In this document: in pieces, positions 8,998 through 40,279 of the stretch
How positions within the stretch are numbered: position 1 is the stretch's first letter
Layout: every line of letters starts with the position of its first letter
Source: Polyangiaceae bacterium
GTDB lineage: Bacteria > Myxococcota_A > Polyangia > Polyangiales > Polyangiaceae
Direction: 5' to 3'
NCBI GenBank assembly: GCA_044225865.1
Contig: JBGAID010000021.1
Location: 1-40,279, forward strand
Length of the DNA stretch: 40,279 nt
Position numbers and translations under genes: made by a program
Notes under the pieces: generated by a model
The model's database searches: none
The model's input: only the letters and a program-made list of their open reading frames with translations
What the model was told of the DNA's origin: nothing

Positions 8998-9302
8998 CGC
9001 GCCCCTCGCAGCTTGGCCGTGGGGGAGGCCCAGACCATTTGAAACGCGCGTTGGGCGGCGAGCGCGCGCGCCCCCATCGGTGATGCGCGATAGCGAGGTC
9101 GCGCCATCCCCGAGTGCTGCTCGGGAGAAGGATCACGAAGCACCTCGACGAGGCCTTTTTCCTCCATTCGCCCGAGCGTCACATAGACAGTCCCCCGCTT
9201 GAGGGCGCCCTCCGAGGCGTCGACGAGGGCGAGCCCATACGAGGGGCCACGCTCGATGAGGAGCTCGAGGACGAGCGCTTCTTTCTCCGACAGCTTGGAC
9301 AT
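8994..9302 (-). CDS. PadR family transcriptional regulator.
   Basis: LVLELLIERGPSYGLALVDA...GTVYVTLGRMEEKGLV winged-helix pattern. Confidence 0.7.
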   Translation of the reverse strand: MSKLSEKEALVLELLIERGPSYGLALVDASEGALKRGTVYVTLGRMEEKGLVEVLRDPSPEQHSGMARPRYRASPMGARALAAQRAFQMVWASPTAKLRGAR

Positions 9303-9311
9303 GGCCGAGTC

Positions 9312-10232
9312 TTACTTCTTGTAAGACTCACGCGCAAGCGCCAATCGTGGGTCGGCGCGGAGCCGCTCGACCATGAGCTCGACGAGCGCGCGCGCGCGAT
9401 GGGTCGTCGTCGCGCCGGCGTGGAGCACGTGAATCGGGATGGGAGGGGGCTCCCATTGCGGAAGGAGCACGATGAGACGGCCGCGTTCGATCTCGTCGGC
9501 CACTTGATAGGAGAGCGCCCGAATGACCCCGAGCCCCGCCGCTGCCGCCGCGATGGTCGCGTCCGTGCTGTTCGTCGTGAGCCGGGGCCTGACGACGACG
9601 CGATGAGCTCGCCTCGCCCGTCGAAATGTCCAGCTCGTGCCCGCCGCCGCGGGAGAGAAGGCGACGACGTCGTGGCGGGCGAGATCCTCCGGCCGCGCGG
9701 GCGGCTCGCGGTCCCGCAGGTAGGAGGGCGCCGCGCACACCACGCTCCGGACCATCCCCACCCGCGCTGCCCTCCAGCTCGAGTCGCGAAGATGGGCAAT
9801 GCGCACCGCCACGTCGACGCCCTCCTCCGCGAGATCGACGACGCGATCCAAGTAGCTCGCGCGAAGCGCTACATCGGGGTGAGCACGCAGAAATCGAAGA
9901 ACGATGGGCGCCACATAGAGCCGGCCGAACATGACAGGCGCGGTGAGGAGGATTCCCCCGGAGAGCCTCCCGTCGTCCCCTCGCACCACCGCCACCGAGG
10001 CTTCGACCGCGTGGAGGATCCTCCGCACCTCGACGAGGAATTTCGCGCCTACCTCGGTGAGCGATACGACCCTCGTCGTCCTCCGCACGAGGCGGGCCCC
10101 GAGGTCGGCCTCGAGGGCTTGCAGCGTCCTCGTCACGACGGCAGGAGACTTGCCGAGCCGGCGCGCGGCGGCGGCGAGACCGCCCGCCTCGGCCACGGCA
10201 GCGAACGTCGCGAACGCGTCCAGACGGTCCAT
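9312..10232 (-). CDS. LysR family transcriptional regulator. Start set at ATG 10232 (MDRLDAF...) instead of GTG 10292.
   Basis: MDRLDAFATFAAVAEAGGLAAAARRLGKSPAVVTRTLQALEADLGARL is a canonical LTTR N-terminus. Confidence 0.85.
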   Translation of the reverse strand: MDRLDAFATFAAVAEAGGLAAAARRLGKSPAVVTRTLQALEADLGARLVRRTTRVVSLTEVGAKFLVEVRRILHAVEASVAVVRGDDGRLSGGILLTAPVMFGRLYVAPIVLRFLRAHPDVALRASYLDRVVDLAEEGVDVAVRIAHLRDSSWRAARVGMVRSVVCAAPSYLRDREPPARPEDLARHDVVAFSPAAAGTSWTFRRARRAHRVVVRPRLTTNSTDATIAAAAAGLGVIRALSYQVADEIERGRLIVLLPQWEPPPIPIHVLHAGATTTHRARALVELMVERLRADPRLALARESYKK

Positions 10233-11279: not shown

Positions 11280-12233
11280 ATGAGCAATGTCGAGCTACGT
11301 CGCTCCAATCTGAATCTGCTCCCGGTCCTCGAGGCGCTGCTCGAGACGCGCTCCGTCACGGAGTCGGCGCGTCGACTCCATGTCTCTCAGTCGGCGGTCA
11401 GCCACTCGCTCGCGCGCCTCCGTGAGATGCTCGGCGATTCCTTGCTCATGCCCTCGGGGCGGAGCTTCGTGCTGACCCCGCGCGCGGTGGAGCTGGCCGC
11501 CTCGCTCCCGTTGGCGCTCGACGGGCTGGAGCGGGCCCTGGCTCCGAGCACGCCATTCGAGCCCGCGTCGACGCAGCGGACATTCCGGATCGCCACCCTC
11601 GACTACTTCGAGCTGGTCCTGATCGGCGAGCTGCTCGCGACGATGCGCTTGCGGGCGCCTCGCGCGAAGGTCGTCGTCGACCGCATCTCCCCGGGCACCA
11701 TTCCCGCCCTGCTCGCGGGGGACATCGACCTCGCCCTCGTCGGCGAGACCAGCCTCCCCCGGCACCCCTTGCTCGAGCGGCGGCCCCTCTACGAGGAGCC
11801 GTTCGCGGTGATGATGCGAAGGGGCCACCCCGCCGCGAAGCGAGGCCGCGTTTCCCTCCACGACTATCTGGCCTATCCCCACGTCGTCGTGACGGTCGAA
11901 GGCAGGCTCGACGGGGCCGTCGACCGGGCGCTCGAGCGACACAAAGTGCGCCGTGAGGTGGCCCTCCGCGTGCCTCACTTCGCGACCGCTCCCCTCGCCG
12001 TTGCCGCCAGCGACGCCATTTGCACCATCGCGAGTCGAGTCGCCCATCGAGCGCAGGAGCTCTATCCGGTCGTCGTCAGGAAGCCGCCCATCGCCCTGCC
12101 GAGCCCGACGATCTGCGCCGTGTGGTCGAGGCGGGCCGCTGAAGACCCAGCCGCGAGCTGGTTTCGCGGCCTGTTCCTGGATCCTTCGGGGCCTCTGCGC
12201 GTCCCCGACGTCCCGCGAGCGCGGCGGCGGTGA
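11280..12233 (+). CDS. LysR family transcriptional regulator.
   Basis: LNLLPVLEALLETRSVTESARRLHVSQSAVSHSLARLRE HTH. Confidence 0.85.
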   Translation: MSNVELRRSNLNLLPVLEALLETRSVTESARRLHVSQSAVSHSLARLREMLGDSLLMPSGRSFVLTPRAVELAASLPLALDGLERALAPSTPFEPASTQRTFRIATLDYFELVLIGELLATMRLRAPRAKVVVDRISPGTIPALLAGDIDLALVGETSLPRHPLLERRPLYEEPFAVMMRRGHPAAKRGRVSLHDYLAYPHVVVTVEGRLDGAVDRALERHKVRREVALRVPHFATAPLAVAASDAICTIASRVAHRAQELYPVVVRKPPIALPSPTICAVWSRRAAEDPAASWFRGLFLDPSGPLRVPDVPRARRR

Positions 12234-14929: not shown

Positions 14930-16795
14930 TCACAGAGGGGGGGATTCGCCCCCCCGAAGGCGCCTCGCGACCGCCCAGTGCTCCTCCCCGCCCCTCCGCG
15001 GCGCGGGCAGGGCGGAGAGGAAAGCGCCAATCGCCTCCGCGACCGCGTCGGCGTGGGTCAAATGCGGATTGTGGCCCGCCCCCGGGATGGTCACGACGTT
15101 CTTCACGGCGGGCGGGCACCGGATGGGCTCCGCCTCGGCGTGGATCACCAGGATTGGGATCCGTCGCTCGACCACGCGGCTGAGCGCGCCTCGCAAGGCC
15201 ACGCGCGCCTTGGGAGACGCGGCCCGCGCGAGGGCGCGGGCGATCCGGAGGGGAGCCCCTCGGCGGCGCATCGCCGAGAGGGCGGCGTCGATCGCACGCC
15301 CCGCCTCATCGAGCGCAGGCCCGCTCGCCTCGGATAGGAATCGCCGAACGAACGCCGGCCGATCGATCCGGGCGAGCACGGGGGCGACGATCCGCGGCAT
15401 TCGCAGCAGCCAGGGGGCGGGACCAGCGAGGAACGCCGGCGCTATCAAAATCAGAGCGCGAACCTCGTCCGGGCGGGCATCCGCGTGGGCGACCGCGAGG
15501 CCCGCCCCGAGCGAGTGCCCGACGAGCACCGCCGGCTCGCGGCGGCGCCGCAACACCTTCGAGAGCCAGTCGGTGTCTTCGTCGCTCGCGTGGACCGCGG
15601 ACGACCTACCCATGCCCGGCAAATCGATGCTCGCCGTCGCCGCCCCCAGCCGCGACGCAACGGGAGCCATCGCCTCGCCGTCGAACGGGACGCCGTGCAG
15701 GGCGACGAGCTCGGAGGTCTCGAGCGGCCCCGCGACGAAGATGCCGCCGTGCGTCCTACCGCGCACCGCCCCTGGCACCCGCCCGAAGTAGGTCGACGCG
15801 AGCCCGTCGCACGCCCGCGGGAAGGCCTCTTCGAAGCGGGAGAGCTCAATCCCCTCCGAAGCGGCGAGCGCCTCGGTGCGGCGGGTGTCGTAGCGGTCTT
15901 CGACGAGAAAGCCGAGGCTCTCCGCGTCGACGCCGGTGAGCACCTTCGGCAGCGCGGCGACGAGCCCGACGGGGAGACGCCGAGAGGGAAGCCCGACTTG
16001 CCAATGCGCCGCCGCCGCGCCGAGGAGCTCCGGGAGGGTGGGCGTGCCCGGGTCGAGCACTACCAAATCCTCGCCCGCGCTCTCCTGTCGAAAGGGGACC
16101 GTCGCGAGGATCTCGGCGAGCGTGTCGACCGGGACGATCGGCACGGTCTCGCGGCCCGTCCCGACCTGAGCCAGGAGTCGCCCCTCGAAGAGCCGCCCCA
16201 GCGTCTCGCCGAGCCCTATCGTCTGAATCGTCTCTCCTGTCCGCGAGTCCCCTATCACCGCGCTCGGGTGCACCGCCGTCCACGGCATCGACCGGCCCGA
16301 CATCTCGTCGCGAAACAGCCGATAGGCGGCGTGCTTCGATCGCTCGTACGCGCCGTCTCCGCCTCTCGCGGGCCGGGTCATCCGATAGCCACCCACGAAC
16401 ACGAAGCGCTCCAGGCGGGGGAGCTCCGCCGCCCACGCGATCACGTTCCGCGTCCCCTCTACGTTGGCGGCTCCGGCCTCGCGCCGATCCATCCCGAAGG
16501 CGAACTTCGCGGCGAGGTGAATGACCACCCGCACCGCCCTCGGGTCGAGGGCGAGCCCCAACCCCGGCCTCTCGATATCCCCGTCCACGACCAGGACGCG
16601 CTCCGGGTCGCCCCCGATCCGGGCCACGAAGGCGCGGAGCTCGGCCTCGCGCCGCGCCCCCCCGCGGACCAGCGCGACGACGGTGTGGTGGCGACGGGAG
16701 AGGGCGGCGAGCGTCCATCGACCGATGAAGCCGGTGGCGCCCGTCACGAGCACGGCGGCGGCGGAGAGGTCGGCAGTGCGTTTCATGCCGACCAT
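14930..16795 (-). CDS. Fusion protein: N-terminal thioester/fatty-acyl reductase (NAD_binding_4, TD-like SDR) plus C-terminal alpha/beta hydrolase.
   Basis: VLVTGATGFIGRW, YERSKHAAYRL (YxxxK), and a TD-like region. C-terminal VLVGHSLGAGLAVAHA GxSxG elbow. Confidence 0.7.
   Translation of the reverse strand: MVGMKRTADLSAAAVLVTGATGFIGRWTLAALSRRHHTVVALVRGGARREAELRAFVARIGGDPERVLVVDGDIERPGLGLALDPRAVRVVIHLAAKFAFGMDRREAGAANVEGTRNVIAWAAELPRLERFVFVGGYRMTRPARGGDGAYERSKHAAYRLFRDEMSGRSMPWTAVHPSAVIGDSRTGETIQTIGLGETLGRLFEGRLLAQVGTGRETVPIVPVDTLAEILATVPFRQESAGEDLVVLDPGTPTLPELLGAAAAHWQVGLPSRRLPVGLVAALPKVLTGVDAESLGFLVEDRYDTRRTEALAASEGIELSRFEEAFPRACDGLASTYFGRVPGAVRGRTHGGIFVAGPLETSELVALHGVPFDGEAMAPVASRLGAATASIDLPGMGRSSAVHASDEDTDWLSKVLRRRREPAVLVGHSLGAGLAVAHADARPDEVRALILIAPAFLAGPAPWLLRMPRIVAPVLARIDRPAFVRRFLSEASGPALDEAGRAIDAALSAMRRRGAPLRIARALARAASPKARVALRGALSRVVERRIPILVIHAEAEPIRCPPAVKNVVTIPGAGHNPHLTHADAVAEAIGAFLSALPAPRRGGEEHWAVARRLRGGESPPL
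14937..14955 (-). terminator. GGGGGGG-ATTCG-CCCCCCC hairpin immediately after the stop of the reductase-hydrolase gene. Related to the hairpin repeats at the window start.
   Basis: Read directly. 7-bp G/C stem with a 5-nt loop, sitting between two co-directional genes. Confidence 0.45.
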
Positions 16796-16833: not shown

Positions 16834-17634
16834 TCATGGCTCGCATGACTCATCTCGCACATTGCTGGCCCGGATCGCGGCGACGAGCCAGGCCGTGAGC
16901 CCCGCTCCATGGCGATCGATGTTCTCCCGAAAGCGCGCGTCCGCCTCGTACATGTCGGCGAGGCCGCGGTGCATCTGCCGGGAGCACGGATAGAACCAGC
17001 GATCGATCGACAGCCGATGCCGCTCGGCGAGCTTCGTCCCTTCGGCGCCAGCGGGAGGCGTGCCGTCGAGCATGAGCGCCGCCGCGTCCGCCATGATCGC
17101 GTCCGCCTCCATCCTGTAGCGCTCCCAATCCGCCTTCGTGTACCGGCTCGTTCGGCGCTTGGACTCCTCGTACGCCTCGGTCTCGCCCCAGCGCGACTTG
17201 GCCTCCGCCTCGTAGCGAGATGGCTCGAATCCGTCGAACAGCGCCTTCACTTCCTCGTCGCTCATTCCGATGGTCATGCTCGTCTCTCCTTCTTTCTGCA
17301 GCGCGAGGAGCGCCGCCTCGACCGACCGCAACATCGCCGCCGTCCGCTCCGCGCGCGCCAAGAGCTCGCGCCGCTGCCCCTCCAACGCGCCCCGCCTGTC
17401 GTAGCTCGGGTCATCCAAGGATCGTTTGATCGCTTCGAGCGGCATCCCGAGCTCACGCCCCACGAGGATTTGCTGGAGGAGGAGGAGGTCCTCTTCGCGA
17501 TAAAGCCGATAGCCGCTCTTCGAGCGGGCCGAAGGTACGAGCAGCCCCACCTCGTGATAGTGGTGCAGCGTCCGAATGGAGACGCGGGCGAGCTCGGCGA
17601 CCTCGTTGACCCGGAGCATTTTGCGACTCGTCAT
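16834..17634 (-). CDS. MerR family transcriptional regulator with a TipAS-like C-terminal domain. An alternative start at 17619 is possible.
   Basis: MLRVNEVAELARVSIRTLHHYHEVGLLVPSARSKSGYRLYREEDL. Confidence 0.8.
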   Translation of the reverse strand: MTSRKMLRVNEVAELARVSIRTLHHYHEVGLLVPSARSKSGYRLYREEDLLLLQQILVGRELGMPLEAIKRSLDDPSYDRRGALEGQRRELLARAERTAAMLRSVEAALLALQKEGETSMTIGMSDEEVKALFDGFEPSRYEAEAKSRWGETEAYEESKRRTSRYTKADWERYRMEADAIMADAAALMLDGTPPAGAEGTKLAERHRLSIDRWFYPCSRQMHRGLADMYEADARFRENIDRHGAGLTAWLVAAIRASNVRDESCEP

Positions 17635-17666
17635 GTCGGGGACGCTACGGCCTCCCGTCGCGTGAG

Positions 17667-17724
17667 GGTCAAGGACATTTGCTGCCCCACGCGCCTTGAC
17701 CATCAATGCGCCATGATGTATCTA
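17667..17724 (+). promoter_or_regulatory. Divergent MerR/ArsR promoter region: dyad GGTCAAGG-n19-CCTTGACC, then CATCA-n8-TGATG lying between a TTGACC and a TATCTA spaced 17 nt apart.
   Basis: Read directly. The -10-like hexamer ends 1 nt before the annotated ArsR ATG, so the transcript may be leaderless or the true start may be GTG 17732. Confidence 0.35.
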
Positions 17725-21870: not shown

Positions 21871-23196
21871 TCATGGGGAGCGTGAGAGCGAGGTCACGAT
21901 CCGGTCGCCGAACAGCATCCAGGCGACAAGCAGCAGCGCCACGACGAGCGGCGAAAGGAGGAGGAGCACCGTCATCGGGCGGAGCCGCGACGGCGAGGGA
22001 GACGGGGCCGGACTGGCATGCGCCGTCCCCGACCGACGAAACGCCGGGAGCGAGCCCATCGCTCCCCGCGCCGTCGGCTGGTGAGGCCGCGTCGCCTGCT
22101 CCATCGTGACCGACTCCACGCTCGGTACGGAAGCGCGCCATCGCGGGGGCGGGGGGGCGGCGGGCGCTTCGACCTCGGCGGCCGGCGCCTCGAGCGTTCC
22201 CGCCTCGGACCCTTCGAAGCTGCCGATCTCGATCGGATCGAACTCCCAGGCCCCATGCGCCGAAGGGGATCTCGTCCGCTCTGCCGCCGTGTCGTCCGGG
22301 AGCGGGAACGCGGCCGCGAACGAGCGCGTCATGTCGTCGATGGTTTGGAATCGGCGCGTGCGGTCTTTCGCGAGCGCCTGCTCGAAGAAGGCGTCGGCGG
22401 ACGCGGGCAGGGATGCATTCACGGCCGTCGGCGGGCGCGGATCGGTGCCACGAATGGCGATGATCGCGGCCGCGAGACGTCCCGGGAATGGCAGCTCACC
22501 GGTGAGGGCGCGATAGAGCACCACCGCGAGCGACCAAAGATCGGCGCGGGCGTCCAAGTCGGGGCCGCAGTCGATGTGCTCGGGGCTCATGTATGAGGCG
22601 GACCCGAGCACCATCCCGGGGCGGGTGAGGTTCGCTCGATCCCAGCCGTCCTTCGCGATCCCGAAATCGAGGAGCTTCACCGTCTCGTCGAGGTCCCGAA
22701 TGGAGCGCGTCCCGGATGCCTTCGGCTTGTGGCGCTCGAAGAAGATGTTCCCCGGCTTGAGGTCGCGGTGAACGATCTGGAGCGCGTGAGCGAGGCGCAG
22801 GCCCTCCGCCACGCCCGCGAGCAGGCCGCGGCACTCCACTGGGTCCAATCGCTTTCGACGGCGCAGCCGGTCGTGCAGCGTCTCGCCCTCGAGCAGGCCC
22901 ATCGCGATGAACGCGGAGGTGCCGGTGAGCCCGTGGTCGAAGACCTCCACGAAAGGCCGGCCGCGGAGCTGTCGGCTCAGCATTGCTTCGCGTTCGAAGC
23001 GGGCCTTCGCGCGCACCGGATCTTCGCAGTCGAGCGAGATGATCTTGAGGGCGACGCGCTCGCGACGGACGCGGTCGAACGCGGCCCAGACCTCGCTCAT
23101 CCCGCCGCGCCCGATCCGATCTTCGAGCTCATACCTGCCGGCGAACGCCTCCTTCTCCGGCGTCGGCGTCGGGATGGATGGAATCGACGGTCGCAT
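21871..23196 (-). CDS. Ser/Thr protein kinase, tail-anchored: a Pro/Ala-rich linker and a single C-terminal TM helix.
   Basis: IGRGGMSEVW, HRDLKPGNIFF, DFGIAKD, and a C-terminal MTVLLLLSPLVVALLLVAWMLF. Start chosen at the Met before RYELEDRIGRGG. Confidence 0.85.
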   Translation of the reverse strand: MRPSIPSIPTPTPEKEAFAGRYELEDRIGRGGMSEVWAAFDRVRRERVALKIISLDCEDPVRAKARFEREAMLSRQLRGRPFVEVFDHGLTGTSAFIAMGLLEGETLHDRLRRRKRLDPVECRGLLAGVAEGLRLAHALQIVHRDLKPGNIFFERHKPKASGTRSIRDLDETVKLLDFGIAKDGWDRANLTRPGMVLGSASYMSPEHIDCGPDLDARADLWSLAVVLYRALTGELPFPGRLAAAIIAIRGTDPRPPTAVNASLPASADAFFEQALAKDRTRRFQTIDDMTRSFAAAFPLPDDTAAERTRSPSAHGAWEFDPIEIGSFEGSEAGTLEAPAAEVEAPAAPPPPRWRASVPSVESVTMEQATRPHQPTARGAMGSLPAFRRSGTAHASPAPSPSPSRLRPMTVLLLLSPLVVALLLVAWMLFGDRIVTSLSRSP

Positions 23197-23376
23197 CGAG
23201 ACGAGCGTGCTCGGCGCCTCTCGCGCGCTGCGGCGCGGCCGAGCCAGCCGCTCTTTGGCGACGTGAGAGTACTGCGTCGATTGGGACGCGCCTTTGTGCT
23301 TCGGCCGCATCACGCATTCGAAGCCTATCGGAGGAGGACGATGATTCCGATGAGTCGTCGAGGCCGCACCTCCGAC

Positions 23377-32561: not shown

Positions 32562-33425
32562 GTGCTGGGCCTTCGCGCATCGGGAACAGTCGGGGCAGCG
32601 CTCGCCATCCTCTTTTTCCTCGGCTGCGCCGAGGGCAGCGAGGTTCCCGGCGACGGGAGCGGAGCAAGCTCTTCGGGCGCGGGCAGCAACGTCGGCGGAG
32701 GGTCCTCGAGCGGTGGGGGCGACGGGACCGGCGGCGGAGAGACGTCGTGCGGCGACACCTGCGACGAGGACGGGGATGGGGTCTTCGATCCCGACGACGC
32801 CTGCGGAGGCACGCCTTCCGGTGAGCCGGTCAACGCCGACGGCTGCTCCGACTCGCAGGTGGAGCCTGCGCTGCGAGACGAGTTTCCGCCCTACGGATTG
32901 ACCTGGACCCCCGAGGGCGATCCCGGCCGGCCCGGGGGGCTGACCTGGAGCTATACCGGGATCGACAAGGCAGATTTGTTTCATATCTATTGGGTCATCT
33001 GTGACGATCCCGCGACCCCGTGCGGGGTCTCGCTCGACGGCCCGATCGACGTCGCGTCCGAGCATTGGCAGTTCAGCGCCGCCGACTCCGACTTGCCGGC
33101 GGGGCGGGTGGCCTTCTTGAACACCACGAACATCGCGCTCGCCGACGGCAGCGCGCCTCCGGTGACCGGGCGGCTCACCGTGACGATCGTCGACGACGCG
33201 GGGGCGGCCATTCCGTTCGCGGATTTGGCGACGCTCGGCGTCTCGGGGCGCGATGGTCAATATGGCGCCGAGATCCCGGGGGGCGGCTTCACCGTCACGG
33301 TCCAGATCGAGGTTCAGGACGACGCCGTGTGGACGCCCTACCTCGACTATTTCGACGCCGCCTCCACCCCCGACCCGGGGCCGGGGTCGGCGCTCTCGTT
33401 TGGCGGCTCCTTCTACGACGAGTGA
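32562..33425 (+). CDS. Lipoprotein with thrombospondin-type-3-like Ca-binding repeats.
   Basis: Lipobox FFLGC, a G/S tether, and CDEDGDGVFDPDDACGGTPSGEPVNADGC (a TSP3-type DxDxDGxxDxxDxC repeat). Confidence 0.55.
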   Translation: MLGLRASGTVGAALAILFFLGCAEGSEVPGDGSGASSSGAGSNVGGGSSSGGGDGTGGGETSCGDTCDEDGDGVFDPDDACGGTPSGEPVNADGCSDSQVEPALRDEFPPYGLTWTPEGDPGRPGGLTWSYTGIDKADLFHIYWVICDDPATPCGVSLDGPIDVASEHWQFSAADSDLPAGRVAFLNTTNIALADGSAPPVTGRLTVTIVDDAGAAIPFADLATLGVSGRDGQYGAEIPGGGFTVTVQIEVQDDAVWTPYLDYFDAASTPDPGPGSALSFGGSFYDE

Positions 33426-33463
33426 CGCGGAGCCCCCGCCCCCAGCGTGATAGCTTCACGTCC

Positions 33464-34261
33464 ATGCGCGCGGCCGATTCGGTCTCGGACTTCCTCCGCG
33501 ATCCCATCGGGAAGTGGGTTCTCGCCGCCCCGACCGTGCTCGTGTTCTGTGCTCACCCCGAGCTCTGCGGCGCGGTCGTGTGGGGACGGCCGCCGGTGGA
33601 GTCCGCCCACGCGATGCTGGAAGCATTTCACTACCGGCACCCCAAGATGAGCGAGCGGTTCGACGTCGTCCTCGACGGCAGCGGGATCGACGTCCTCGAC
33701 CCGGACACGCTGGCGTGCGTGGTGGGATGGCTGCGAGAGCGCCGCGAGGAGCTCGCGCGGCGGGTGCGGATGCAAGTGGGCGTCGTCTCCGATTCGTTCG
33801 TGAGCATCACGTTGACCGGCATCCTGCCCATTCTGGGCGAGACGCACCCCTTCCGGCTGTCGCGCGACCGCACCGAGGCGCTGATGTCTCTCGGAGAGGA
33901 CAATGGGCCCGTGGCGGCCACGCTCGACGAGGCGGTGGTCGCGGCGCGCGGCGAGTCGTATGACCTGCGGCGCCTCCGCGAGCTGCTGCGCGCCGATCCC
34001 GCGCGCGCGACGATCGACGGCTCGGCGCGCTCCTTGGCGCTCTCCCCGCGGACGCTGCAGAGAATCCTGGAGAACGCCGGCACTTCCTACCGGGAGGAGC
34101 TCCGGGCGGCGCGGCTCGCGGTGGCGCTGCCCATGCTCATCCACGGCGACGCGAAGATCGCCGTCATCGCCGGGCGTGTCGGGCTCTCCGAGCGCGCGCT
34201 CACGGAGCTCGTGAGACGCGACAAGGGCACGACGCCGGGCGCGCTGCGCGAGAAGAAGTGA
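33464..34261 (+). CDS. AraC family transcriptional regulator.
   Basis: C-terminal LALSPRTLQRILENAGTSYREELRAARLAVALPML. Confidence 0.8.
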   Translation: MRAADSVSDFLRDPIGKWVLAAPTVLVFCAHPELCGAVVWGRPPVESAHAMLEAFHYRHPKMSERFDVVLDGSGIDVLDPDTLACVVGWLRERREELARRVRMQVGVVSDSFVSITLTGILPILGETHPFRLSRDRTEALMSLGEDNGPVAATLDEAVVAARGESYDLRRLRELLRADPARATIDGSARSLALSPRTLQRILENAGTSYREELRAARLAVALPMLIHGDAKIAVIAGRVGLSERALTELVRRDKGTTPGALREKK

Positions 34262-34278: not shown

Positions 34279-34821
34279 TCAAATGGCGTCGTCGGTGACG
34301 CAATATCCATGCGGCCACGCCGTGTGGGAAGCGCAGATGCCCGACGAACAGTCGGAGTCCTTTTCGCATGCGTGCACGTAGCAACCTGCAGCGGTGCACG
34401 GGAAGGAGCCGCAGCGCGCCTCGTCGCGCCCGACGCCCTCGCTCTCGGGGGTGCACCGGCAGCCGGACCAAACCTGCCAATCGACCGCCTCTCCGGTCGG
34501 GGGCGCGAATGGCCGGCACGCGCGCGCTCCGTCCTCTTCTGCTCGAACGCAATAGCCCTCTGAGCAGAAGCCGAGGCTGCAGTGAGTGCGATCGTCGCAC
34601 ACCGCGACGACGCACTTCCCCCCGCTGCACGGGAAGGGCCCGCACGCGGTGGATTGCTCCGCACACGTCTTCTCCCTCGCCGCCTCGGCGGCCGCCGGGA
34701 GATCGCCCGCGGATACGACCTTCACCGCGCGTCCGTGGACGACGACGACCGTCGAGGAGCAATGGAGGCCCAGGCACGCGGCGAGCACCTCGACGCGCGC
34801 CCAGATCAGCCGATGCTTCAT
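34279..34821 (-). CDS. Secreted cysteine-rich protein (about 22 Cys in the ~150-aa mature chain).
   Basis: Signal peptide MKHRLIWARVEVLAACLGLHC, then Cys-rich modules (DSDCSSGICASHTAWPHGYC). Confidence 0.55.
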   Translation of the reverse strand: MKHRLIWARVEVLAACLGLHCSSTVVVVHGRAVKVVSAGDLPAAAEAAREKTCAEQSTACGPFPCSGGKCVVAVCDDRTHCSLGFCSEGYCVRAEEDGARACRPFAPPTGEAVDWQVWSGCRCTPESEGVGRDEARCGSFPCTAAGCYVHACEKDSDCSSGICASHTAWPHGYCVTDDAI

Positions 34822-34922: not shown

Positions 34923-36089
34923 TCAGCCGATAGCGGGGAGACTGACGCGGAACACGGTGCCGCCGCCCGGGGGACAATCGACGGTCGTGTCACCCCCATG
35001 AGCCCGCGCCGCGAGCTGTACGAAGGTGAGCCCGAGGCCCTGATTGCGCGCGCGGGCGTGGGCGCCCTCTTGCCCGACGGGGGCGAACCGCTCGAAGATC
35101 TTCCCGCGCGACGCGGCGGGAATACCGGGCCCGTCGTCGGAGACTGCGATCACGGCGCGGCCTTCATCGGCGTGGGTGGAGATCCTCACCCGCTTTGCGA
35201 ACCTCGATGCGTTGTCGACGAGATTGCGGATGATTCTCAGTACGATGTCCGGATCGACGTTGGCGATCACCGGCTCGCCCCCCTCCTCGACCTCGATGGT
35301 GCAGAAGGCGGTGAGGGCGGGAGCCCGCGACAGCCCCGCGGCCTCCCTCGCGAGCGCGGACAGGTCGACCTCGCGCTTCGACAGCGGGAGGGTGTTCGTC
35401 TCGAGGCGCGCCGTGTCCAGGAGGTTGATCAGCACCGACTCGATTCGGCGACACCCTTCTCGAGCGTCCGCGATCGCCTCGAGGGCAAGGACGTCGTCTC
35501 GCGCCCGCATTTCTACCAGGGAGAGGCTGAGGGCAATGGCGGTGAGCGGGTTCTTCACATCGTGGACGAACATCTGGGTGAGGGTCTCTCGAACCCGATC
35601 GACGGAGCGCTCGAAGGCGACGTCTCGAATCACCAAGAGACCATAGTGCTGTCCGTTCGCCTCGAACGAGGTGAGGAGGACACGGACCTCACGGGGAATG
35701 GCGAGGAGCGGAAATGGAAATGAGAAGTCTGCTTCGACGGCGAAAGGCTCGCGGCCGATCTTCTCCCGGAACACACCCGCCATCGCGGGGATGTTCATGC
35801 AGACGCCGAGCTCGCCAAAGAAGTCGCGCCCGAGGACCTCTTCCCGGCGCCGACCCGCGAGGCGCTCCTCCACCGCGTTGTAGACGACGGCCCTCCCCTC
35901 CACGTCGAGGACGATGACGCCGACGGGAAGCATATCCGCGAGGTTGGAAAGAAGTTGAAGCAAGGCTGGCTGCCCCCCCGGCCGACAAGGGAACCCCAAA
36001 CGAACGTCCAGCGCAAACCAGATCGCTTCCCATGCTCGATTTTCGACGACCACACCGTCCGCCTTCGAGGAGGCGCCGTTCACCGGCAT
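34923..36089 (-). CDS. Sensor histidine kinase with an N-terminal PYP (photoactive yellow protein)-type PAS domain.
   Basis: The N-terminal domain aligns to H. halophila PYP: VYNAVEERLAGRRREEVLGRDFFGELGVCMNIP versus [33 protein letters not shown] (Y42, E46, R52, F62, C69 conserved). Followed by an H-box MFVHDVKNPL and an HATPase with N, G1 (DDGPGIP) and G2 boxes. Confidence 0.75.
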   Translation of the reverse strand: MPVNGASSKADGVVVENRAWEAIWFALDVRLGFPCRPGGQPALLQLLSNLADMLPVGVIVLDVEGRAVVYNAVEERLAGRRREEVLGRDFFGELGVCMNIPAMAGVFREKIGREPFAVEADFSFPFPLLAIPREVRVLLTSFEANGQHYGLLVIRDVAFERSVDRVRETLTQMFVHDVKNPLTAIALSLSLVEMRARDDVLALEAIADAREGCRRIESVLINLLDTARLETNTLPLSKREVDLSALAREAAGLSRAPALTAFCTIEVEEGGEPVIANVDPDIVLRIIRNLVDNASRFAKRVRISTHADEGRAVIAVSDDGPGIPAASRGKIFERFAPVGQEGAHARARNQGLGLTFVQLAARAHGGDTTVDCPPGGGTVFRVSLPAIG

Positions 36090-36184
36090 GGCAATCTCAC
36101 TCCGCCGCTGCACGCGCTCGAGCGTGGCCACTGGACATGCTCACGTCCGGCCGCTCAGGCGTTCTTCTGCCGAGCGAGGCGCGG

Positions 36185-37975
36185 ATGGTACGGGACGTCA
36201 TGCGCAAGCATTGGCTCGTCCCCCTGGCCCTGCTGGCAGCGTGCGACGGAGCGGCCTCGCCCAGCGATGGAGGATCGGGCGGCGAATGCGGTGAGGGCGG
36301 CGCGGCGGGAACGCCCGCGCGCGAAGAGCCCGAGGACGAGCTCTCCCCGCTCCGCCTCCTCCGCCGCGCGAGCATCGCCCTGCTCGGGGTTCCCCCGACC
36401 GACGCGCAGCTCGCGGAGGCGGCCGCCCTCCCCGACGACGAGGCTCGCTTCACCTACGTCGACGCCTTCATCGATGACGCCCTGAAGGATCCGCGCTTCT
36501 ACGACACGACCTTCGAGCTCGCCAAGCGCTGGCTCAACATCCCGCTCATCGACCGCACCGCGGACGCGCCGGAGTACGGCCCCCAGCAGCAGCGCGTCTT
36601 GACCGCGTGCCCACCGGAGTCCGCCCATGGCGGGGATCTCCATTACTATCGCGACAACTTCGAGAGCGCGGACGAAGCTTGCAGCGCCGCCGCCCCGACG
36701 CGCACCCTCGAGCCGTGGTGGGCCCCCGGGACGATGGTGACGCTCACTGGCAATGCCGCGAGCACCTCTCAAACCGGCCAGAGCACGCAGGAGGGGAACC
36801 CGATCGACATCCAGTGCAATGGCCGACCCGAAGGGACGTGCGGCTGCTTCACGGACGCCGCGGGCTGCTGGTTCGACCCCGGAAGCTACCCGGGATGGGG
36901 CGCCTTCGTCCCTGGCAACCCCAATGGCCAGCGTCGATTGCTCGCCGAGGAGCCGGCCCGCCTCTTCGCCCACATCGCATGGCACGATCTCCCGGCGACC
37001 GATTTCATCCTCGCCGATCTCTCGGTGGGACCGAGCACGGTCCAGGCCGCCTATGTGAGCCAGTCGCTCGCGGGCGGGGATCTCGCGGTCGTCGACGACA
37101 AGAGCTGGTGGAGCCCGGCCCAATTCGGGGCCGCCAAGGTCGATCCCCACCACGACGCCAATGACCCGTCCGCGTGGCGCGAATATCATCCATCCGAGCG
37201 CAACCGCTTCTTCTTGGCGGACCGCGATTACCATTTCGATCCGCGAGAGACCACGGAGCGGTCGGAGGGTATTCCCTCCGCCGGCATGCTGACGTCGCTG
37301 GGGTTCCTCGACGCGTACCCGCGCGAGCGGCTCAGGGCGGCGCGCGCGCTGGAGGCCCTCGCCTGCGAGCAGCTCTTGCCCCCGGGCGGGGACATCGAGT
37401 TCAACCCGTATCTGACGGATCCGGGGGACGAGGGGCCATGCCAGAACTGCCACAAGCGGATCGACCCCGCCGCGATGCACTTCAAACGATATGGAAAGCG
37501 CGGCAGCGCCTTCGAGGGCTGGGGGGCGCAGTACTTCATGCCGGGGGTCGGGGAGTGGACGTGGGACCCGGCGTGGCGCGAGGGTGAATATCCGTACTCG
37601 ACGGAGCCGTTCGCGCAATGGAACAAATGGTACCGCCCCGGCTCCGTCATGACCCCTGCCACCGAGGAGGAGGTCGCCGCCAATCCGTACGCCCTCTTCA
37701 TGGACTTCTTGCCTGAAGAGCAGACGCTCTTGGGTCAGCACGGAGACGGGACGGTCGGTCCCCTCGGCTTCGCCAAAATCATCGTCGCCGCCGGCTCTTT
37801 CGATCGGTGCGTAGTGCGCCGGCTCCACGAGCGGATCATCGGGCGGGACATCGATCCCGCCAGCGAGACAGGCTACCTCGAGACGCTCGTCGCTCAGTTC
37901 GTCGAGGGCGGGCGGCTGGTGCGACCGTTCGTGAAGACGCTGACCCAGTCGACCTGGTTCCGGAGGGGGTTTTGA
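36185..37975 (+). CDS. Secreted lipoprotein carrying a CxxCH motif, planctomycete/myxobacterial DUF15xx-like. An alternative start is at 36200.
   Basis: Lipobox LALLAAC plus a G/S tether. CQNCHKRIDPAAMHF heme-binding-type motif. Confidence 0.55.
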   Translation: MVRDVMRKHWLVPLALLAACDGAASPSDGGSGGECGEGGAAGTPAREEPEDELSPLRLLRRASIALLGVPPTDAQLAEAAALPDDEARFTYVDAFIDDALKDPRFYDTTFELAKRWLNIPLIDRTADAPEYGPQQQRVLTACPPESAHGGDLHYYRDNFESADEACSAAAPTRTLEPWWAPGTMVTLTGNAASTSQTGQSTQEGNPIDIQCNGRPEGTCGCFTDAAGCWFDPGSYPGWGAFVPGNPNGQRRLLAEEPARLFAHIAWHDLPATDFILADLSVGPSTVQAAYVSQSLAGGDLAVVDDKSWWSPAQFGAAKVDPHHDANDPSAWREYHPSERNRFFLADRDYHFDPRETTERSEGIPSAGMLTSLGFLDAYPRERLRAARALEALACEQLLPPGGDIEFNPYLTDPGDEGPCQNCHKRIDPAAMHFKRYGKRGSAFEGWGAQYFMPGVGEWTWDPAWREGEYPYSTEPFAQWNKWYRPGSVMTPATEEEVAANPYALFMDFLPEEQTLLGQHGDGTVGPLGFAKIIVAAGSFDRCVVRRLHERIIGRDIDPASETGYLETLVAQFVEGGRLVRPFVKTLTQSTWFRRGF

Positions 37976-37977
37976 CC

Positions 37978-38991
37978 ATGAGACGAGCCCTTTCCCTGTT
38001 GGTCGCTTCGGTCGCGCTCGCCGCCGGGGCCTGCGGCGAGTCGGCGAGCGAATCGCAGACCGATCCCACCCCCTGCGGCGGACCCACCCCCGAGGAGCGC
38101 GCCGCCAATCAGAAGGTCTTCGACGCGCTGTCGCCGACGTGCGCGGGGTGCCACAGCACCGGCAGCCGGGGTTTCTTCGCCTCGATCGAGGCGTTCGAGG
38201 CGCTGGTCGTCTACGCCCAGAACGAGGTCGTCCCCGGGGACCCCGACAATAGCGAGCTCGTCCTCCTGTTGGAAGGTCACGGGACGCGGGCGTTCACCCA
38301 GATGCCCATCGCGGGCCCCGCGTACGCCGACATGGCCGATATTCCCATGAGCATGGCCGACATTCGCGCCTGGGTCGTCGGCCTCGAGGCGCGGCAGCTC
38401 GATCCGCTCCCGTCGATCGAGGCGCGGCGGGTGACCCGGATGGCCGCCGACGACATCCAGCGAGCGCTCTACCAGCAGCTCGGCCTCACCGACGAGGACT
38501 TCTTCGTCCCCGCGAACAACTACGACATCGAGCACAAGAGCAACCAACAATCCGACGAGCGGTACGCCCTCTCTTCGCCAGAGGCGATCCCGGCGCCGTT
38601 CGAGTCTCTGCCGGTGGAGCGCTTCGCGTCTCTCGGAGGCGGGTCGGCGATGTTCCAAATGAAGTCGGACTCGACCGTCACCCCGAGCTATTTGGGCACC
38701 CTCTCTCAGGTGTCGCAGCGCTGGTGCGCGATGGCCCTCGACAAGGCGAACAACACCGCCCTCCTGCCCGCAGGCGCGAGCGTCGCGACCGGCAGCAGCG
38801 ACCCGGCCGCGGTGAAGGCGGTCATTCGCCAATGGTTCCTCCACTTCCACGCCACCGTCGCCGATGACGCGTCGGTGAACGAGGTGTTCGACACCGTGTT
38901 CGTGCCCCTCGAGACGGAGACGGACGCGCGCGCCGGCTACATCGGGACCTGCTCGTACTTCATTCGTCACCCCCACTGGGTCTTCTACTGA
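37978..38991 (+). CDS. Secreted lipoprotein with an N-terminal CxxCH motif.
   Basis: Lipobox LAAGAC, then LSPTCAGCHSTGSRGFF. It begins 2 nt after the previous stop. Confidence 0.5.
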   Translation: MRRALSLLVASVALAAGACGESASESQTDPTPCGGPTPEERAANQKVFDALSPTCAGCHSTGSRGFFASIEAFEALVVYAQNEVVPGDPDNSELVLLLEGHGTRAFTQMPIAGPAYADMADIPMSMADIRAWVVGLEARQLDPLPSIEARRVTRMAADDIQRALYQQLGLTDEDFFVPANNYDIEHKSNQQSDERYALSSPEAIPAPFESLPVERFASLGGGSAMFQMKSDSTVTPSYLGTLSQVSQRWCAMALDKANNTALLPAGASVATGSSDPAAVKAVIRQWFLHFHATVADDASVNEVFDTVFVPLETETDARAGYIGTCSYFIRHPHWVFY

Positions 38992-38999
38992 GAGGCGCC

Positions 39000-40279
39000 A
39001 TGAAACCCACTCGACGACAGCTCCTCCTCGCCGCCTTGGGCGCCTCTCAGGTCGGCCTGCTCGACGCCTTCTCCGGGCGCCCCGCCCTCGCCGGGCCGAA
39101 GCCGGGCGGACCGACGAAGCTGCTCGGCATCTGGCTCGACGGCGGCTGCAACTGGGAGCACATCTTCACGCCATTCTCGTCCGCCGGCGTCGATAAGCTC
39201 ATCCAGCCCCCCGAGGGCGGCAATCACCCGTTCGGCTACGACGCCGCGATGGTGAAGAACTTCGACGGGACGGCGGCGGATCTGGATGCGCCGATCCGCA
39301 AGCTGCGGGGACCCATTCACTGGAACCCCGCCGACCCCGCCGACGCCACCGGCTCGAACACGCTCTCCGGAGGGACCCAGCTCTATCGGCCGTGGGGATA
39401 CAGCTGGGCCAACCCGGACTACAAGCTCTACGATCGCGCGTGCCTGCTCGTCGGGGCCGACCAGGGGACGGCGTCCCACGCGAGCGGGATCGTCGCCAGC
39501 ATGTGCGGCGTCGCCGGATCATCCTTCCGGGCGCCCTCCGTCCACGCGGTGCTGGCCAATTACCTCGCCGCATACTTTCCGGATAGACCGGTGCCCAACG
39601 CGACATTGGGCGGGACAGCGCCGTCGGCGGCGGGGCTACCGGCCATCGCCAATCCGTATTCGTTGTCGAGCTTGGCCCTCGTAGAGTCGACGATCTCGGA
39701 CCGACGCGACGGGGCGTGGGCGGGGCTGCGGACGCGCACCGATCGCGACGCGGTGGACTTCGACGGCAAGCCGCTCGGGGAGAAGTGGCCCCTGACCGCG
39801 ACGGACGCAGCGGTGATGGAGGCGATCCGGCGAGACAAAGGCGTCTCCACCACCGGCACCGACGAAGCGCTGCGCCAGCTCTACGAGACCTACGCCGGCG
39901 TCAGCAAGACGATCGCGCGCGACGTGCTCACCAAGCTCGAAGCGACCGCCGGCTTCGAGCACATCGACGCCGACCCGCTCTACGCGGGAGGCGCCTTCGG
40001 CACCGCGTGCATCGGCGCGGCCGACGTGTGCGGCCCCGTACGCAGCGGCGGTCCTTGGGAGTTCGCGCTCCGGCTGCTCAAGTCGGATCTCGTGAGCTGC
40101 CTGAATCTTCGCGCCACGAGCATCGCGAACGCCTCGTTCGACGTGCACTTCTCGGGGGGCGCCCGCGCCCAGACGAGCCACTTGCGAATCGCCCTCGAGG
40201 GGATCGCGCAGATGCTCATCGAGATGTCTCTGACCCCGGCCCCCTCCGGACAGGGCACCCTCCTCGACGAGACCCTCGT
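39000..40279 (+). CDS. Tat-signal protein, DUF1501/DUF1552-like. It is 3'-truncated by the window edge.
   Basis: MKPTRRQLLLAALGA twin-arginine signal. LLGIWLDGGCNWEHIF core motif. The reading frame is open to the end of the window. Confidence 0.5.
   Translation, partial: MKPTRRQLLLAALGASQVGLLDAFSGRPALAGPKPGGPTKLLGIWLDGGCNWEHIFTPFSSAGVDKLIQPPEGGNHPFGYDAAMVKNFDGTAADLDAPIRKLRGPIHWNPADPADATGSNTLSGGTQLYRPWGYSWANPDYKLYDRACLLVGADQGTASHASGIVASMCGVAGSSFRAPSVHAVLANYLAAYFPDRPVPNATLGGTAPSAAGLPAIANPYSLSSLALVESTISDRRDGAWAGLRTRTDRDAVDFDGKPLGEKWPLTATDAAVMEAIRRDKGVSTTGTDEALRQLYETYAGVSKTIARDVLTKLEATAGFEHIDADPLYAGGAFGTACIGAADVCGPVRSGGPWEFALRLLKSDLVSCLNLRATSIANASFDVHFSGGARAQTSHLRIALEGIAQMLIEMSLTPAPSGQGTLLDETL

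Follow-up and report, generated by a model that had tools for sequence, protein, structure and literature searches.

Photoactive yellow protein (PYP) is, in biophysical terms, among the best-studied photoreceptors, yet how it signals downstream remains for the most part unknown (PMC12826048). According to work cited in the same paper, the kinase Ppr of Rhodospirillum centenum is regulated by light excitation of its PYP domain. Fifteen short N-terminal fusions of PYP to HisKA/HATPase_c, or to HATPase_c alone, have since been catalogued and predicted to be blue-light kinases (Dohmen et al. 2025, J Bacteriol, PMC12826048). For the engineered LOV kinase YF1, the length of the coiled-coil linker is known to set the sign of the light response (PMC6798134). 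Myxobacteria are reported to form fruiting bodies more readily in the light, and a blue-light response in this group has been attributed, as a proposal, to PYP genes (PMC6126659).

Here we analyse a stretch of 40,279 nucleotides from a Polyangiaceae bacterium (contig JBGAID010000021.1; hereafter the window), in which an earlier note, made from the letters alone, had described a histidine kinase with a PYP sensor domain. We read the gene product as an orphan sensor histidine kinase of class I, soluble and cytoplasmic, whose sole input is a PYP-family domain, predicted to be switched by blue light, and give this reading a probability of about 0.7.

Results

The sensor comprises residues 1-115 of 346 (35619..35963, minus strand), a short N-terminal helix followed by a PAS core. 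With the isolated PAS domain as phmmer query and the whole set of PDB sequences as target, we obtained significant matches to PYPs only (E 5.6e-14 to 3e-6), the PYP domain of Ppr (1mzu) coming first at 5.6e-14 and the prototype, Halorhodospira halophila PYP, at about 1e-9, while the best non-PYP PAS domain, EcDOS, reached E 0.2. The NCBIfam model TIGR02373 (photo_yellow) matched the sensor over profile positions 22-121 of 124 with E 5.6e-17 and 62 bits; the generic PAS model TIGR00229 gave E 2.6e-4 and 21 bits. TIGR02373 also matched every one of the 40 family domains scanned (best E 6e-24). The sensor's score on this model, 58.5-62 bits, lies under the curated equivalog cut-off of 143.05 bits, a value tuned to canonical PYPs that stand alone. 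We describe the sensor as a divergent member of the family rather than as an equivalog.

The same placement emerges from phylogeny and structure. In a neighbour-joining tree (Poisson distances, 200 bootstraps) of the kinase family, 20 published PYPs and the PAS domains of LOV, FixL and DOS, 199 of the 200 replicates set the kinase family and the published PYPs apart from the other PAS domains; mean identity to the published PYPs is only 31%. The AlphaFold model of the sensor domain (pLDDT 90.8) was compared with the PDB using Foldseek: the best 35 matches are all PYPs, heme and LOV PAS domains rank below them, and superposition on H. halophila PYP (2phy) gives a TM-score of 0.78 and an rmsd of 2.0 Å over 110 columns. 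These results confirm that the sensor domain belongs to the PYP family and is specifically PYP-like rather than a generic PAS domain. The earlier note had drawn this assignment from an alignment covering residues ~45-150 of a 388-aa form, and had proposed to test it by asking whether the domain scores as generic PAS with no PYP-specific match; PDB searches, profiles and predicted structure all proved PYP-specific, and its claim stands.

One element of free PYP is reduced. The two-helix N-terminal cap (PYP residues 1-25) was not found in the models, which show a single short helix at residues 2-10, and four PYP residues are deleted in the cap region of the alignment. The Foldseek matches include 1odv, which we take to be the structure of the delta-25 truncation of PYP. 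Delta-25 PYP still binds its chromophore, which makes the cap dispensable.

We then compared the chromophore pocket residue by residue with H. halophila PYP, counting conservation over an alignment of 66 orthologues. The chromophore cysteine is in register, GVC falling on APC, so that Cys55 (codon 35799..35801, minus strand, checked) corresponds to PYP Cys69, the predicted p-coumaric acid thioester site and the residue that the definition of Dohmen et al. 2025 asks of a PYP homologue. VYNAVEE likewise falls on QYNAAEG, which places Tyr28 and Glu32 (YNAVE, 35868..35882, minus strand, codons checked) on the phenolate hydrogen-bond pair Tyr42 and Glu46. Ala36-Gly37-Arg38 (35850..35858, minus strand) aligns with Thr50-Gly51-Arg52, and an FF pair with Phe62/63; the register that the note had proposed for Cys69, Tyr42/Glu46, Arg52 and Phe62 is thus borne out. 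The equivalents of Cys69, Glu46, Arg52, Phe62 and Phe63 are each present in 66/66 orthologues, that of Asn43 in 65/66 and that of Phe96 in 63/66. The position of Tyr42 carries Tyr in 48/66 orthologues and Phe in 18/66, the window kinase itself having Tyr; the corresponding figures for published PYPs are 90.8% Tyr and 8.9% Phe (PMC12826048). The note had further singled out the replacement of Thr50 by Ala. The substitution is indeed present, but it is no oddity: Ala50 is the PYP-family consensus (PMC12826048), and the orthologues have Ala in 58 cases, Ser in 4 and Thr in 4.

The loop next to the cysteine is less canonical. VAPC has become LGVC in the window kinase, which changes three residues of the published nine-residue pocket (V66L, A67G, P68V), while Ile31, Phe62 and Phe96 are retained and V/I-A-P at positions 66-68 is kept by the majority of the family. 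Published conservation ranges from 73% to 96% for Ile31, Phe62, Val66, Ala67 and Pro68, and is 56% for Phe96 (PMC12826048). The subclade of the window kinase often has His at position 66 and Tyr, Phe or Val at position 68; more distant members of the kinase family have the canonical VAPC loop. Beyond this motif, the equivalent of Thr70 is Met in 53/66 orthologues, Tyr98 and Met100 are replaced by Phe and Leu, and the 97-102 loop, with a two-residue insertion, is modelled at a pLDDT of ~68. Given V66L, A67G and P68V in the pocket, the binding of p-coumarate and a photocycle are put forward as predictions.

Such a pocket might belong to a sensor that derives from PYP without being a p-coumarate photoreceptor, and which responds to another hydroxycinnamate or small molecule, or through the Cys thiol to redox state, so that the signal would be chemical and not light. 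Several observations are compatible with this: the clade is deep-branching, with the low mean identity to known PYPs given above; the TIGR02373 score falls under the equivalog cut-off; the pocket loop is remodelled across the subclade (V66L/H, A67G, P68V/Y/F) and Met usually replaces Thr70; chromophore-synthesis genes lie near none of the ~20 loci described below; and PYP is fused to V4R small-molecule domains in some myxobacterial proteins, a V4R gene also lying near the orthologue in one locus (L003). On the other hand, the photoreceptor residues Cys69, Glu46 and Arg52 are invariant in all 66 orthologues and Phe62 and Phe96 are conserved, which is hard to explain without a chromophore. Phe42, Ala50 and variation at 66 and 68 also occur in accepted PYPs, and the more distant family members keep VAPC. 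We consequently regard a purely chemical sensor as unlikely, though the most serious competitor to a blue-light kinase. Somewhat less probable again is that this deep-branching, cap-less clade, so far seen in metagenome-assembled genomes only (nearly all of them Myxococcota) and tied to a kinase by an invariant 20-residue helix, has through its remodelled loop (LGVC here, HA[Y/F/V]C in close relatives) taken on another chromophore, a colour far from that of PYP, or a non-photochemical ligand or redox role; if it had, the PYP fold would here have acquired a new function and the clade would not be just another blue-light PYP.

We next consider the genes around the blue-light kinase that we favour. 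As the earlier note had stated, the window holds no adjacent response regulator and no gene for TAL or 4-coumarate-CoA ligase (pCL). Neither TAL nor pCL was found in the 40-kb window by a Pfam scan of 40 candidate ORFs or by a motif scan for MIO and AMP-binding signatures in all six-frame ORFs; no response regulator was found by Pfam scans or by a receiver HMM run over the six-frame ORFs, and no second PYP by the family HMM and H. halophila PYP run against the same ORFs. A weak receiver-HMM match in the window (E 0.008) proved to be a LysR regulator.

The kinase family comprises about 70 sequence clusters; the orthologues come nearly all from Myxococcota MAGs, and orthologues already carry the label "photoactive yellow protein" in IMG. 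We gathered orthologous loci using an alignment of 11 closer full-length sequences as query. Within 10 kb of ~20 orthologues, we found no TAL or pCL gene. An AMP-binding gene 9 kb from the Archangium orthologue (L001/L018) was considered as a pCL and rejected, as it occurs in one lineage only and lies beside asparagine synthase and methyltransferase genes. No cognate receiver is conserved beside the orthologues, a receiver domain being nearby in only 3 of 20 loci, and the gene contexts of three orthologues together with all-against-all ORF clustering of the 20 loci returned only the kinase and its antisense shadows as conserved. A single-domain receiver lies downstream in L023, and a receiver of the REC-HTH_3 type near L020/L022; regulators of these two types are first candidates for the partner. 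An adjacent response regulator is typical of class-I kinases without defining them; the PYP kinase is an orphan, its partner genes being unlinked. The pyp operons of S. aurantiaca, S. cellulosum and H. ochraceum in the published data set likewise lack TAL and pCL, so that unlinked TAL and pCL genes are weak evidence against a PYP function. Separately, the clustering contained a seven-locus ORF cluster that includes a Ser/Thr-kinase gene (Pkinase, in L018), which we take to be myxobacterial paralogy.

The extent of the coding sequence was also assessed. The minus-strand reading frame ends at 34923 and offers four candidate starts: GTG 36131 (402 aa), ATG 36089 (388 aa), TTG 35963 (346 aa) and ATG 35933 (336 aa). 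Judged from the sequence comparisons, TTG 35963 is probably the true start, giving as the most likely form a CDS of 346 aa at 34923..35963 (minus strand, TGA at 34923-34925, translation checked). The note had placed the start at ATG 36089, and with TTG 35963 as start about 42 codons of its interval are likely untranslated. A database protein of 346 aa (P0001) is 99% identical to the kinase, and a run of seven G, resembling a Shine-Dalgarno sequence, lies ~9 nt upstream of the TTG. The in-frame upstream extension (35964..36131, minus strand), which holds both ATG 36089 and GTG 36131, is probably 5' untranslated, and its GC3 is 0.71-0.75 compared with 0.82 in the 346-aa CDS.

A 388- or 402-aa protein, whose additional 42-56 residues would cap the N-terminus as in free PYP, seems to us improbable. 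The frame is open up to 36131, the GC3 of the extension is still fairly high, and one NCBI record (P0126) annotates the 388-aa form, which leaves the TTG start probable rather than certain. However, the N-termini of three orthologues (P0003, P0005, P0013) align with the TTG residue; the extension has no counterpart in a 72%-identical orthologue (L009), which likewise carries a TTG behind a G-run; conservation across the kinase alignment sets in only with residue 2 as counted in the 346-aa form; and the orthologues listed at E <= 1e-50 are 297-394 aa long, covering ~71-88% of the 402-aa query.

In the 346-aa form, the sensor passes directly into the transmitter. A conserved D-V-A motif at the end of the PAS domain leads into a helical linker (residues 116-133; 35565..35618, minus strand) supported by AlphaFold and the alignment, and the full-length model shows an unbroken helix over residues 116-153 with a second helix at 158-188. 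In every orthologue (66/66), the invariant Asp114 at the PAS end and the position of His134 are exactly 20 residues apart. His134 (codon 35562..35564, minus strand, checked), the predicted phospho-acceptor, lies in the H-box HDVKNP, of which His134 is conserved in 65/66, Asp135 in 66/66 and Pro139 in 66/66 orthologues. Pfam identifies above cut-off both the HisKA/DHp dimerisation and phosphotransfer domain (PF00512, E 3.6e-7; 35397..35591, minus strand) and the ATP-binding HATPase_c domain (PF02518, E 3.8e-22; 34932..35255, minus strand). The latter assignment is further supported by Foldseek and by the N (NLVDNA), G1 (DDGPG), F (FERF) and G2 (GLGLT) boxes. The motifs lie at residues 134 (H), 247 (N), 276 (G1), 290 (F) and 309 (G2), the tabulated residues being conserved in 65-66 of 66 orthologues, and Foldseek matches the transmitter to HK853, CpxA and WalK. 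The complete HisKA/HATPase transmitter with H-box MFVHDVKNPL that the note had read is accordingly present, with every catalytic box. By its motifs the transmitter is assigned to the HisKA-type (class I) histidine kinases, with its motifs intact.

No GAF, PHY or PAS_2 match was found by Pfam, in agreement with the note's statement that the bacteriophytochrome module is missing. This, and the mere 20 residues between the PAS end and the histidine, show that the kinase is no Ppr. An ordinary PAS-histidine kinase whose PYP likeness is a coincidence in a few residues could be argued from Pfam, which reports the sensor as generic PAS PF00989 only (E 8e-6, beside HisKA and HATPase_c), and from the top NCBIfam whole-protein matches, PhoR/PnpS-type kinases driven by the transmitter, but it is effectively refuted by phmmer, where PYPs lead every other PDB PAS domain by 13 orders of magnitude, by the 41-bit advantage of TIGR02373 over the generic model, and by the uniformly PYP Foldseek matches and the bootstrap grouping with known PYPs.

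Discussion

In the scheme that we infer for the kinase, which takes in pCA binding, the photocycle, the wavelength and the sign of the light response as well as the identity of the response regulator, p-coumaric acid (pCA) would be charged as a thioester onto Cys55 (PYP Cys69) of the apo-protein. Its phenolate would be held by Tyr28 and Glu32 (Tyr42 and Glu46) and shielded by Arg38 (Arg52). Blue light, probably of about 435-465 nm, would isomerise the chromophore, and proton transfer from Glu32 would disturb the PAS beta-sheet. The change may then be relayed by the conserved D-V-A junction, where the last strand ends, to the rigid, helical (coiled-coil) 20-residue linker, which would fix the register of the DHp helix bearing His134 and so toggle the dimer between kinase and phosphatase states. 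The phosphoryl group would finally go to a response regulator presumably encoded elsewhere in the genome.

Where PYP is wired directly to a histidine kinase, the read-out is enzymatic, which offers a direct route to how PYP converts light into a biochemical signal. The predicted kinase would be a naturally occurring PYP analogue of YF1, the engineered LOV kinase, and since neither its chromophore nor its colour is that of a flavin sensor, optogenetic use is conceivable. As an orphan, it would also be a candidate input to light-stimulated fruiting in myxobacteria. The concept is not new, since the class has already been catalogued computationally; what this analysis adds is a well-defined family, with about 70 sequence clusters, an alignment and models, together with its invariant residues, the linker rule and the unlinked partner and chromophore genes.

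Comparison with known systems

The classical reference, H. halophila PYP (2phy), has the fold of the window sensor (TM 0.78, rmsd 2.0 Å) and shares Cys69, Tyr42, Glu46, Arg52, Phe62, Phe63 and Phe96 with it, although identity is only 24-28%. It is a free-standing protein of 125 aa with a two-helix N-terminal cap, whereas the window sensor is fused, has a reduced cap and differs by T50A, V66L, A67G, P68V, T70M, Y98F, M100L and the two-residue insertion. Ppr (1mzu), the sensor's best PDB sequence match (E 5.6e-14, ~35% identity), resembles the window kinase in having an N-terminal PYP domain in a histidine kinase. In Ppr, however, a PAS-GAF-PHY bacteriophytochrome lies between PYP and kinase, in place of the 20 residues to the DHp helix found here, and position 50 is Ser rather than Ala.

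Over the whole chain, the best structural analogues are a WalK model (9a5d) and then the LOV-kinase chimeras YF1 and SB2F1 (4gcz, 8a6x). YF1 and natural LOV-histidine kinases share with the window kinase a single PAS sensor and a continuous helical linker to DHp/CA, but they bind a flavin that forms a Cys adduct, are not PYPs, and show a sensor identity of ~18-20%; we use YF1 as a comparison of how such a kinase may work, and claim no membership of that group.

The closest architecture is that of the short fusions of Dohmen et al., in which, as here, an N-terminal Cys69-PYP runs straight into the transmitter with no phytochrome, their loop being (V/I)APC where the window kinase has LGVC. When ten peptide motifs specific to our family were searched for in the supplementary files of that study, 8 were absent and 2 occurred only in unrelated PYPs, so that the Myxococcota members described here appear to lie outside its data set. 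One listed protein, MBA2731661.1 from an Acidobacteria bacterium (PAS 18-116, HisKA 144-204), has a PYP domain 44% identical to that of the window kinase and shares its FxFPFP...PREV...LTSF motif. By sequence and domain order, we assign the window kinase to the short N-terminal PYP-kinase fusions of the type described by Dohmen et al. 2025, an architecture already catalogued.

Sensor domain

The kinase open reading frame lies on the minus strand, ends at the TGA stop at 34923-34925 and remains open to a GTG at 36131 (402 aa). A Pfam domain scan of this 402-aa frame assigns residues 61-108 to a PAS fold, 181-245 to HisKA and 293-400 to HATPase_c; the frame has no transmembrane segment or further domain. 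The isolated PAS domain was searched with phmmer against every PDB sequence: the 33 significant matches are all PYP or PYP-derived, with E values of 5.6e-14 for the Ppr PYP domain (1mzu) and ~1e-9 to 1e-10 for H. halophila PYP, and the next PAS domain, the heme PAS of EcDOS, follows at E 0.2. Over positions 22-121 of its 124, the NCBIfam photoactive yellow protein profile TIGR02373 matches the domain at 62 bits (E 5.6e-17), as opposed to only 21 bits for the generic PAS S-box model. Since this score is far under the TIGR02373 equivalog cut-off of 143 bits, the sensor is a divergent relative and not a canonical PYP.

An AlphaFold2 model of the sensor domain, built from a 40-sequence alignment, has a pLDDT of 90.8 and a pTM of 0.84. 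Its best 35 PDB structural matches in Foldseek are all PYP, heme-PAS and LOV domains rank after them, and the comparison with 2phy gives a TM score of 0.78 and an rmsd of 2.0 Å over 110 columns. Both the profile comparison and the structure prediction are in agreement with the earlier note, which had read the protein as a PYP-sensor histidine kinase, and we estimate a probability of about 95% that a PYP-family sensor and a competent kinase are fused in it.

Gene model

The earlier note placed the start at the ATG at 36089 (388 aa), but the orthologue starts, the comparison with the orthologue of locus L009 and GC3 favour the TTG at 35963. The first residue of three database orthologues (P0003, P0005 and P0013) aligns to Leu57 of the 402-aa frame, which is the TTG codon at 35963, and a database protein with 99% identity (P0001) has 346 aa. 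The 42-56 codons 5' of the TTG have no counterpart in the L009 orthologue (72% identical), which likewise has a TTG start with a run of G before it. The G+C content is ~69% all along the window and the GC3 of the kinase frame is 0.81-0.82, a third-position bias as expected for a genuine gene at this G+C content; GC3 is lower in the codons upstream of the TTG than in the rest of the frame. Based on the orthologue starts, the unconserved upstream codons and a family-wide conservation from residue 2 of the 346-aa form onwards, we take 34923-35963 (minus strand, TTG start, 346 aa) as the coding sequence. Given that one NCBI record is annotated with the 388-aa form, this start is likely rather than proven. 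Residue numbers below refer to the 346-aa form.

Conservation of the predicted chromophore pocket

A search of 5.8 billion proteins returned ~68 full-length relatives (E 1e-50 to 1e-216) of identical architecture, which are 330-394 aa long apart from a few truncated entries; several are already labelled "photoactive yellow protein" in IMG. In an alignment of 66 orthologue sequences, it is the positions defining PYP photochemistry that are conserved. Cys69, Glu46, Arg52, Phe62 and Phe63 (H. halophila PYP numbering) are each kept in 66/66 sequences, Asn43 in 65/66 and Phe96 in 63/66, while position 42 is Tyr in 48 and Phe in 18 and position 50 is Ala in 58, Ser in 4 and Thr in 4. The residue correspondence first read from the sequence alone also holds (Tyr28=Tyr42, Glu32=Glu46, Ala36=Thr50, Arg38=Arg52, Phe48/49=Phe62/63, Cys55=Cys69). 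For Phe82=Phe96, Phe84=Tyr98 and Leu86=Met100 the alignment is backed by the strand and loop assignment of the model; a two-residue insertion follows Leu86, in a loop of lower confidence (block pLDDT 68). Among the 984 sequences of the published PYP set, 8.9% have Phe42, Ala is the consensus at position 50 and Phe96 is kept in only 56% (PMC12826048), so that these deviations fall inside the variation known for PYP.

The chromophore loop is VAPC in most members, HA[Y/F/V]C-type in close relatives and LGVC in the window protein. Position 66 is Val in 37, His in 16, Ile in 12 and Leu in a single sequence, the window protein; position 67 is Ala in 57 and Gly in 9; position 68 is Pro in 48, Tyr in 8, Val in 4, Phe in 3 and Ile in 1; and position 70 is Met in 53, Leu in 11 and Thr in 2. 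The V66L/A67G/P68V combination is the least usual feature of the window protein. This loop speaks for the main alternative, in which a domain descended from PYP has changed its ligand or function, and the conserved photochemical positions speak against it. We regard this alternative as unlikely; the window protein probably binds p-coumarate and is light-regulated as proposed.

Transmitter and proposed signal path

The transmitter boxes are all present, namely H (His134 in HDVKNP), N (NLVDNA), G1 (DDGPG), F (FERF) and G2 (GLGLT), and their tabulated residues are kept in 65-66 of the 66 orthologues. In the full-length model (pLDDT 86.2) the PAS strand 105-114 leads directly into helix 116-153, which bears His134. 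The PAS domain ends at the invariant Asp114 in a D-[V/I]-[S/A/T] motif, the DIT-type junction described for PAS kinases, and the distance from Asp114 to the position of His134 is exactly 20 residues in 66/66 orthologues. Over the whole chain, the structure is closest to a WalK model and to two LOV-kinase chimeras, YF1 (4gcz) and SB2F1 (8a6x). In YF1, linker length governs, with heptad periodicity, both how active the protein is and even which sign its response to light takes (PMC6798134). Because an invariant linker length is expected for such transmission, we infer from the architecture that a change in the linker between the sensor and DHp, rigid and helical or coiled-coil, may carry the signal.

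Genomic context

An AraC-family regulator (33020-34261, plus strand) is convergent with the kinase. A Cys-rich predicted lipoprotein of 180 aa (34279-34821, minus strand) lies ~100 nt downstream on the same strand; it carries a VLAAC sequence that resembles a lipoprotein signal and cysteines repeated at CxxxxC-type spacing, matches no Pfam family and was not found beside the kinase in the orthologous loci. Divergent from the kinase is a gene for a 647-aa protein with a weak match to DUF1549/PSCyt2 (36032-37975, plus strand). The genes 3' of it, with a frame at 38868-40277 (plus strand), include a DUF1501 gene, seen on the Logan contig L005. The pairing of DUF1549/PSCyt2 with DUF1501 is typical of Planctomycetes, and here it is found on a contig whose kinase has mostly myxobacterial relatives.

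The 40 candidate frames of the window encode, according to Pfam scans, regulators, oxidoreductases, a Ser/Thr kinase and others. Among them are a eukaryote-like Ser/Thr protein kinase (21871-23313), a MerR/TipAS regulator (16834-17706) and a fused NAD-binding reductase/alpha-beta hydrolase (14930-16795), all on the minus strand, as well as three LysR regulators, one TetR regulator and a TerC membrane protein; these genes look ordinary for a large myxobacterial-type genome. A receiver domain, an aromatic ammonia-lyase or an AMP-binding ligase was found neither in the 40 candidate frames (Pfam) nor, by HMM and motif scans, in any six-frame ORF of the window; the earlier note had stated that no response regulator is adjacent to the kinase and that the window has no TAL or 4-coumarate-CoA ligase gene.

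A scan of GTDB species representatives gave ~20 orthologous loci (34-72% full-length identity), all in MAGs and none from a cultured myxobacterium. They are labelled Archangium, Polyangiaceae, Sandaracinaceae, Sandaracinus, Polyangiales, Myxococcales and "Deltaproteobacteria"; two loci outside Myxococcota, in a Planctomycetota MAG (L024) and an Acidobacteriota MAG (L025), suggest lateral spread or binning errors. No gene is conserved across the flanks of the ~20 loci. A receiver is nearby in only three: in L023 a single-domain receiver (~11470-11855, plus strand) follows the orthologue at a distance of a few hundred bases, and there are REC-HTH_3 (Xre-type) response regulators ~2.7 kb off on the strand opposite to the orthologue in L020 (13738-14427, minus strand) and L022 (13211-13912, minus strand). 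Both types are candidate partners. The motif scan found no MIO-lyase motif in any of the ~20 loci. Partner and chromophore genes are not linked to the kinase, which is thus an orphan with no sign of its chromophore supply in the surroundings.

In the published operon table, TAL and pCL are likewise missing from the pyp operons shown for S. aurantiaca, S. cellulosum and H. ochraceum, and pCL occurs in only 42/113 predicted pyp operons (PMC12826048). Since most published pyp operons are also without pCL, the absence of TAL and pCL nearby is weak evidence against p-coumarate.

Two loci in Myxococcales MAGs carry additional PYP-like sequences. In L003 (the same locus as L010:9659-10345), a second, more canonical PYP homologue of 186 aa with a VAPC loop and Tyr42/Glu46 (9253-9813, plus strand) lies directly upstream of the PYP-kinase gene and next to a small V4R-domain protein on the other strand (8268-8624, minus strand), a pair that recalls the PYP-V4R fusions reported in myxobacteria. 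In L021 (6517-8679 and 8633-11032, plus strand) the kinase frame is open for ~800 codons, and directly upstream a different frame holds one more PAS segment resembling PYP (family HMM E 8e-17); the locus may encode a kinase with tandem PYP domains or contain a frameshift of the assembly.

Family breadth and phylogeny

A profile search of 1.84 billion cluster representatives gave 51 matches at E <= 1e-30, mostly of the 330-385 aa PYP-kinase type, followed at ~1e-20 to 1e-25 mainly by small proteins (~100-260 aa) that, judged by length, are in the size range of free-standing PYP; very long multi-PAS proteins also appear, with a profile score summed over many repeats. The PYP-kinase family is small and adjoins PYP in sequence space. 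A neighbour-joining tree was built from 19 domains of the family and 20 published PYPs, with three PAS domains that are not PYPs as outgroups. The family and the known PYPs are split from the outgroups in 199/200 bootstraps, and the family branch stands beside the sampled PYPs, with monophyly of the known PYPs in 160/200 and of the family in 106/200. Mean identity is 31% between the family and known PYPs and 38% among known PYPs. The tree, which is small and simple and supports no finer placement, would put the family inside or immediately beside the PYP radiation.

Discussion

The earlier observation is confirmed apart from the start codon, and the PYP-sensor-kinase interpretation is supported as far as computation reaches. 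We found no report of experiments on a direct PYP-kinase fusion in the open-access literature, and in a 2019 review of photoreceptor histidine kinases PYP comes up only via a Ppr reference. Although it will not surprise specialists, the window protein offers a good experimental way into PYP signalling and could serve as an optogenetic part.

PYP genes have been noted in myxobacteria and proposed to underlie a blue-light response in fruiting-body formation (PMC6126659). Dohmen et al. (2025, PMC12826048) catalogued 984 PYP homologues, 9.7% of them in Myxococcota, and 153 multidomain PYPs, including 15 "shorter" proteins in which an N-terminal PYP precedes either HisKA and HATPase_c or a single HATPase domain; these they predicted to give blue-light input to a two-component kinase. 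One of the 15, MBA2731661.1 from an Acidobacteria bacterium (PAS 18-116, HisKA 144-204), has the FxFPFP...PREV...LTSF motif of the family and a PYP domain 44% identical to that of the window protein, so the PYP-kinase family is represented in this catalogue. Of ten peptide motifs from myxobacterial members, eight are absent from the supplementary files of that study and two occur there only in unrelated PYPs; by this comparison, the Myxococcota branch appears not to be included in its data set. The architecture is therefore already known, and the window protein adds to the catalogued PYP-kinase fusions.
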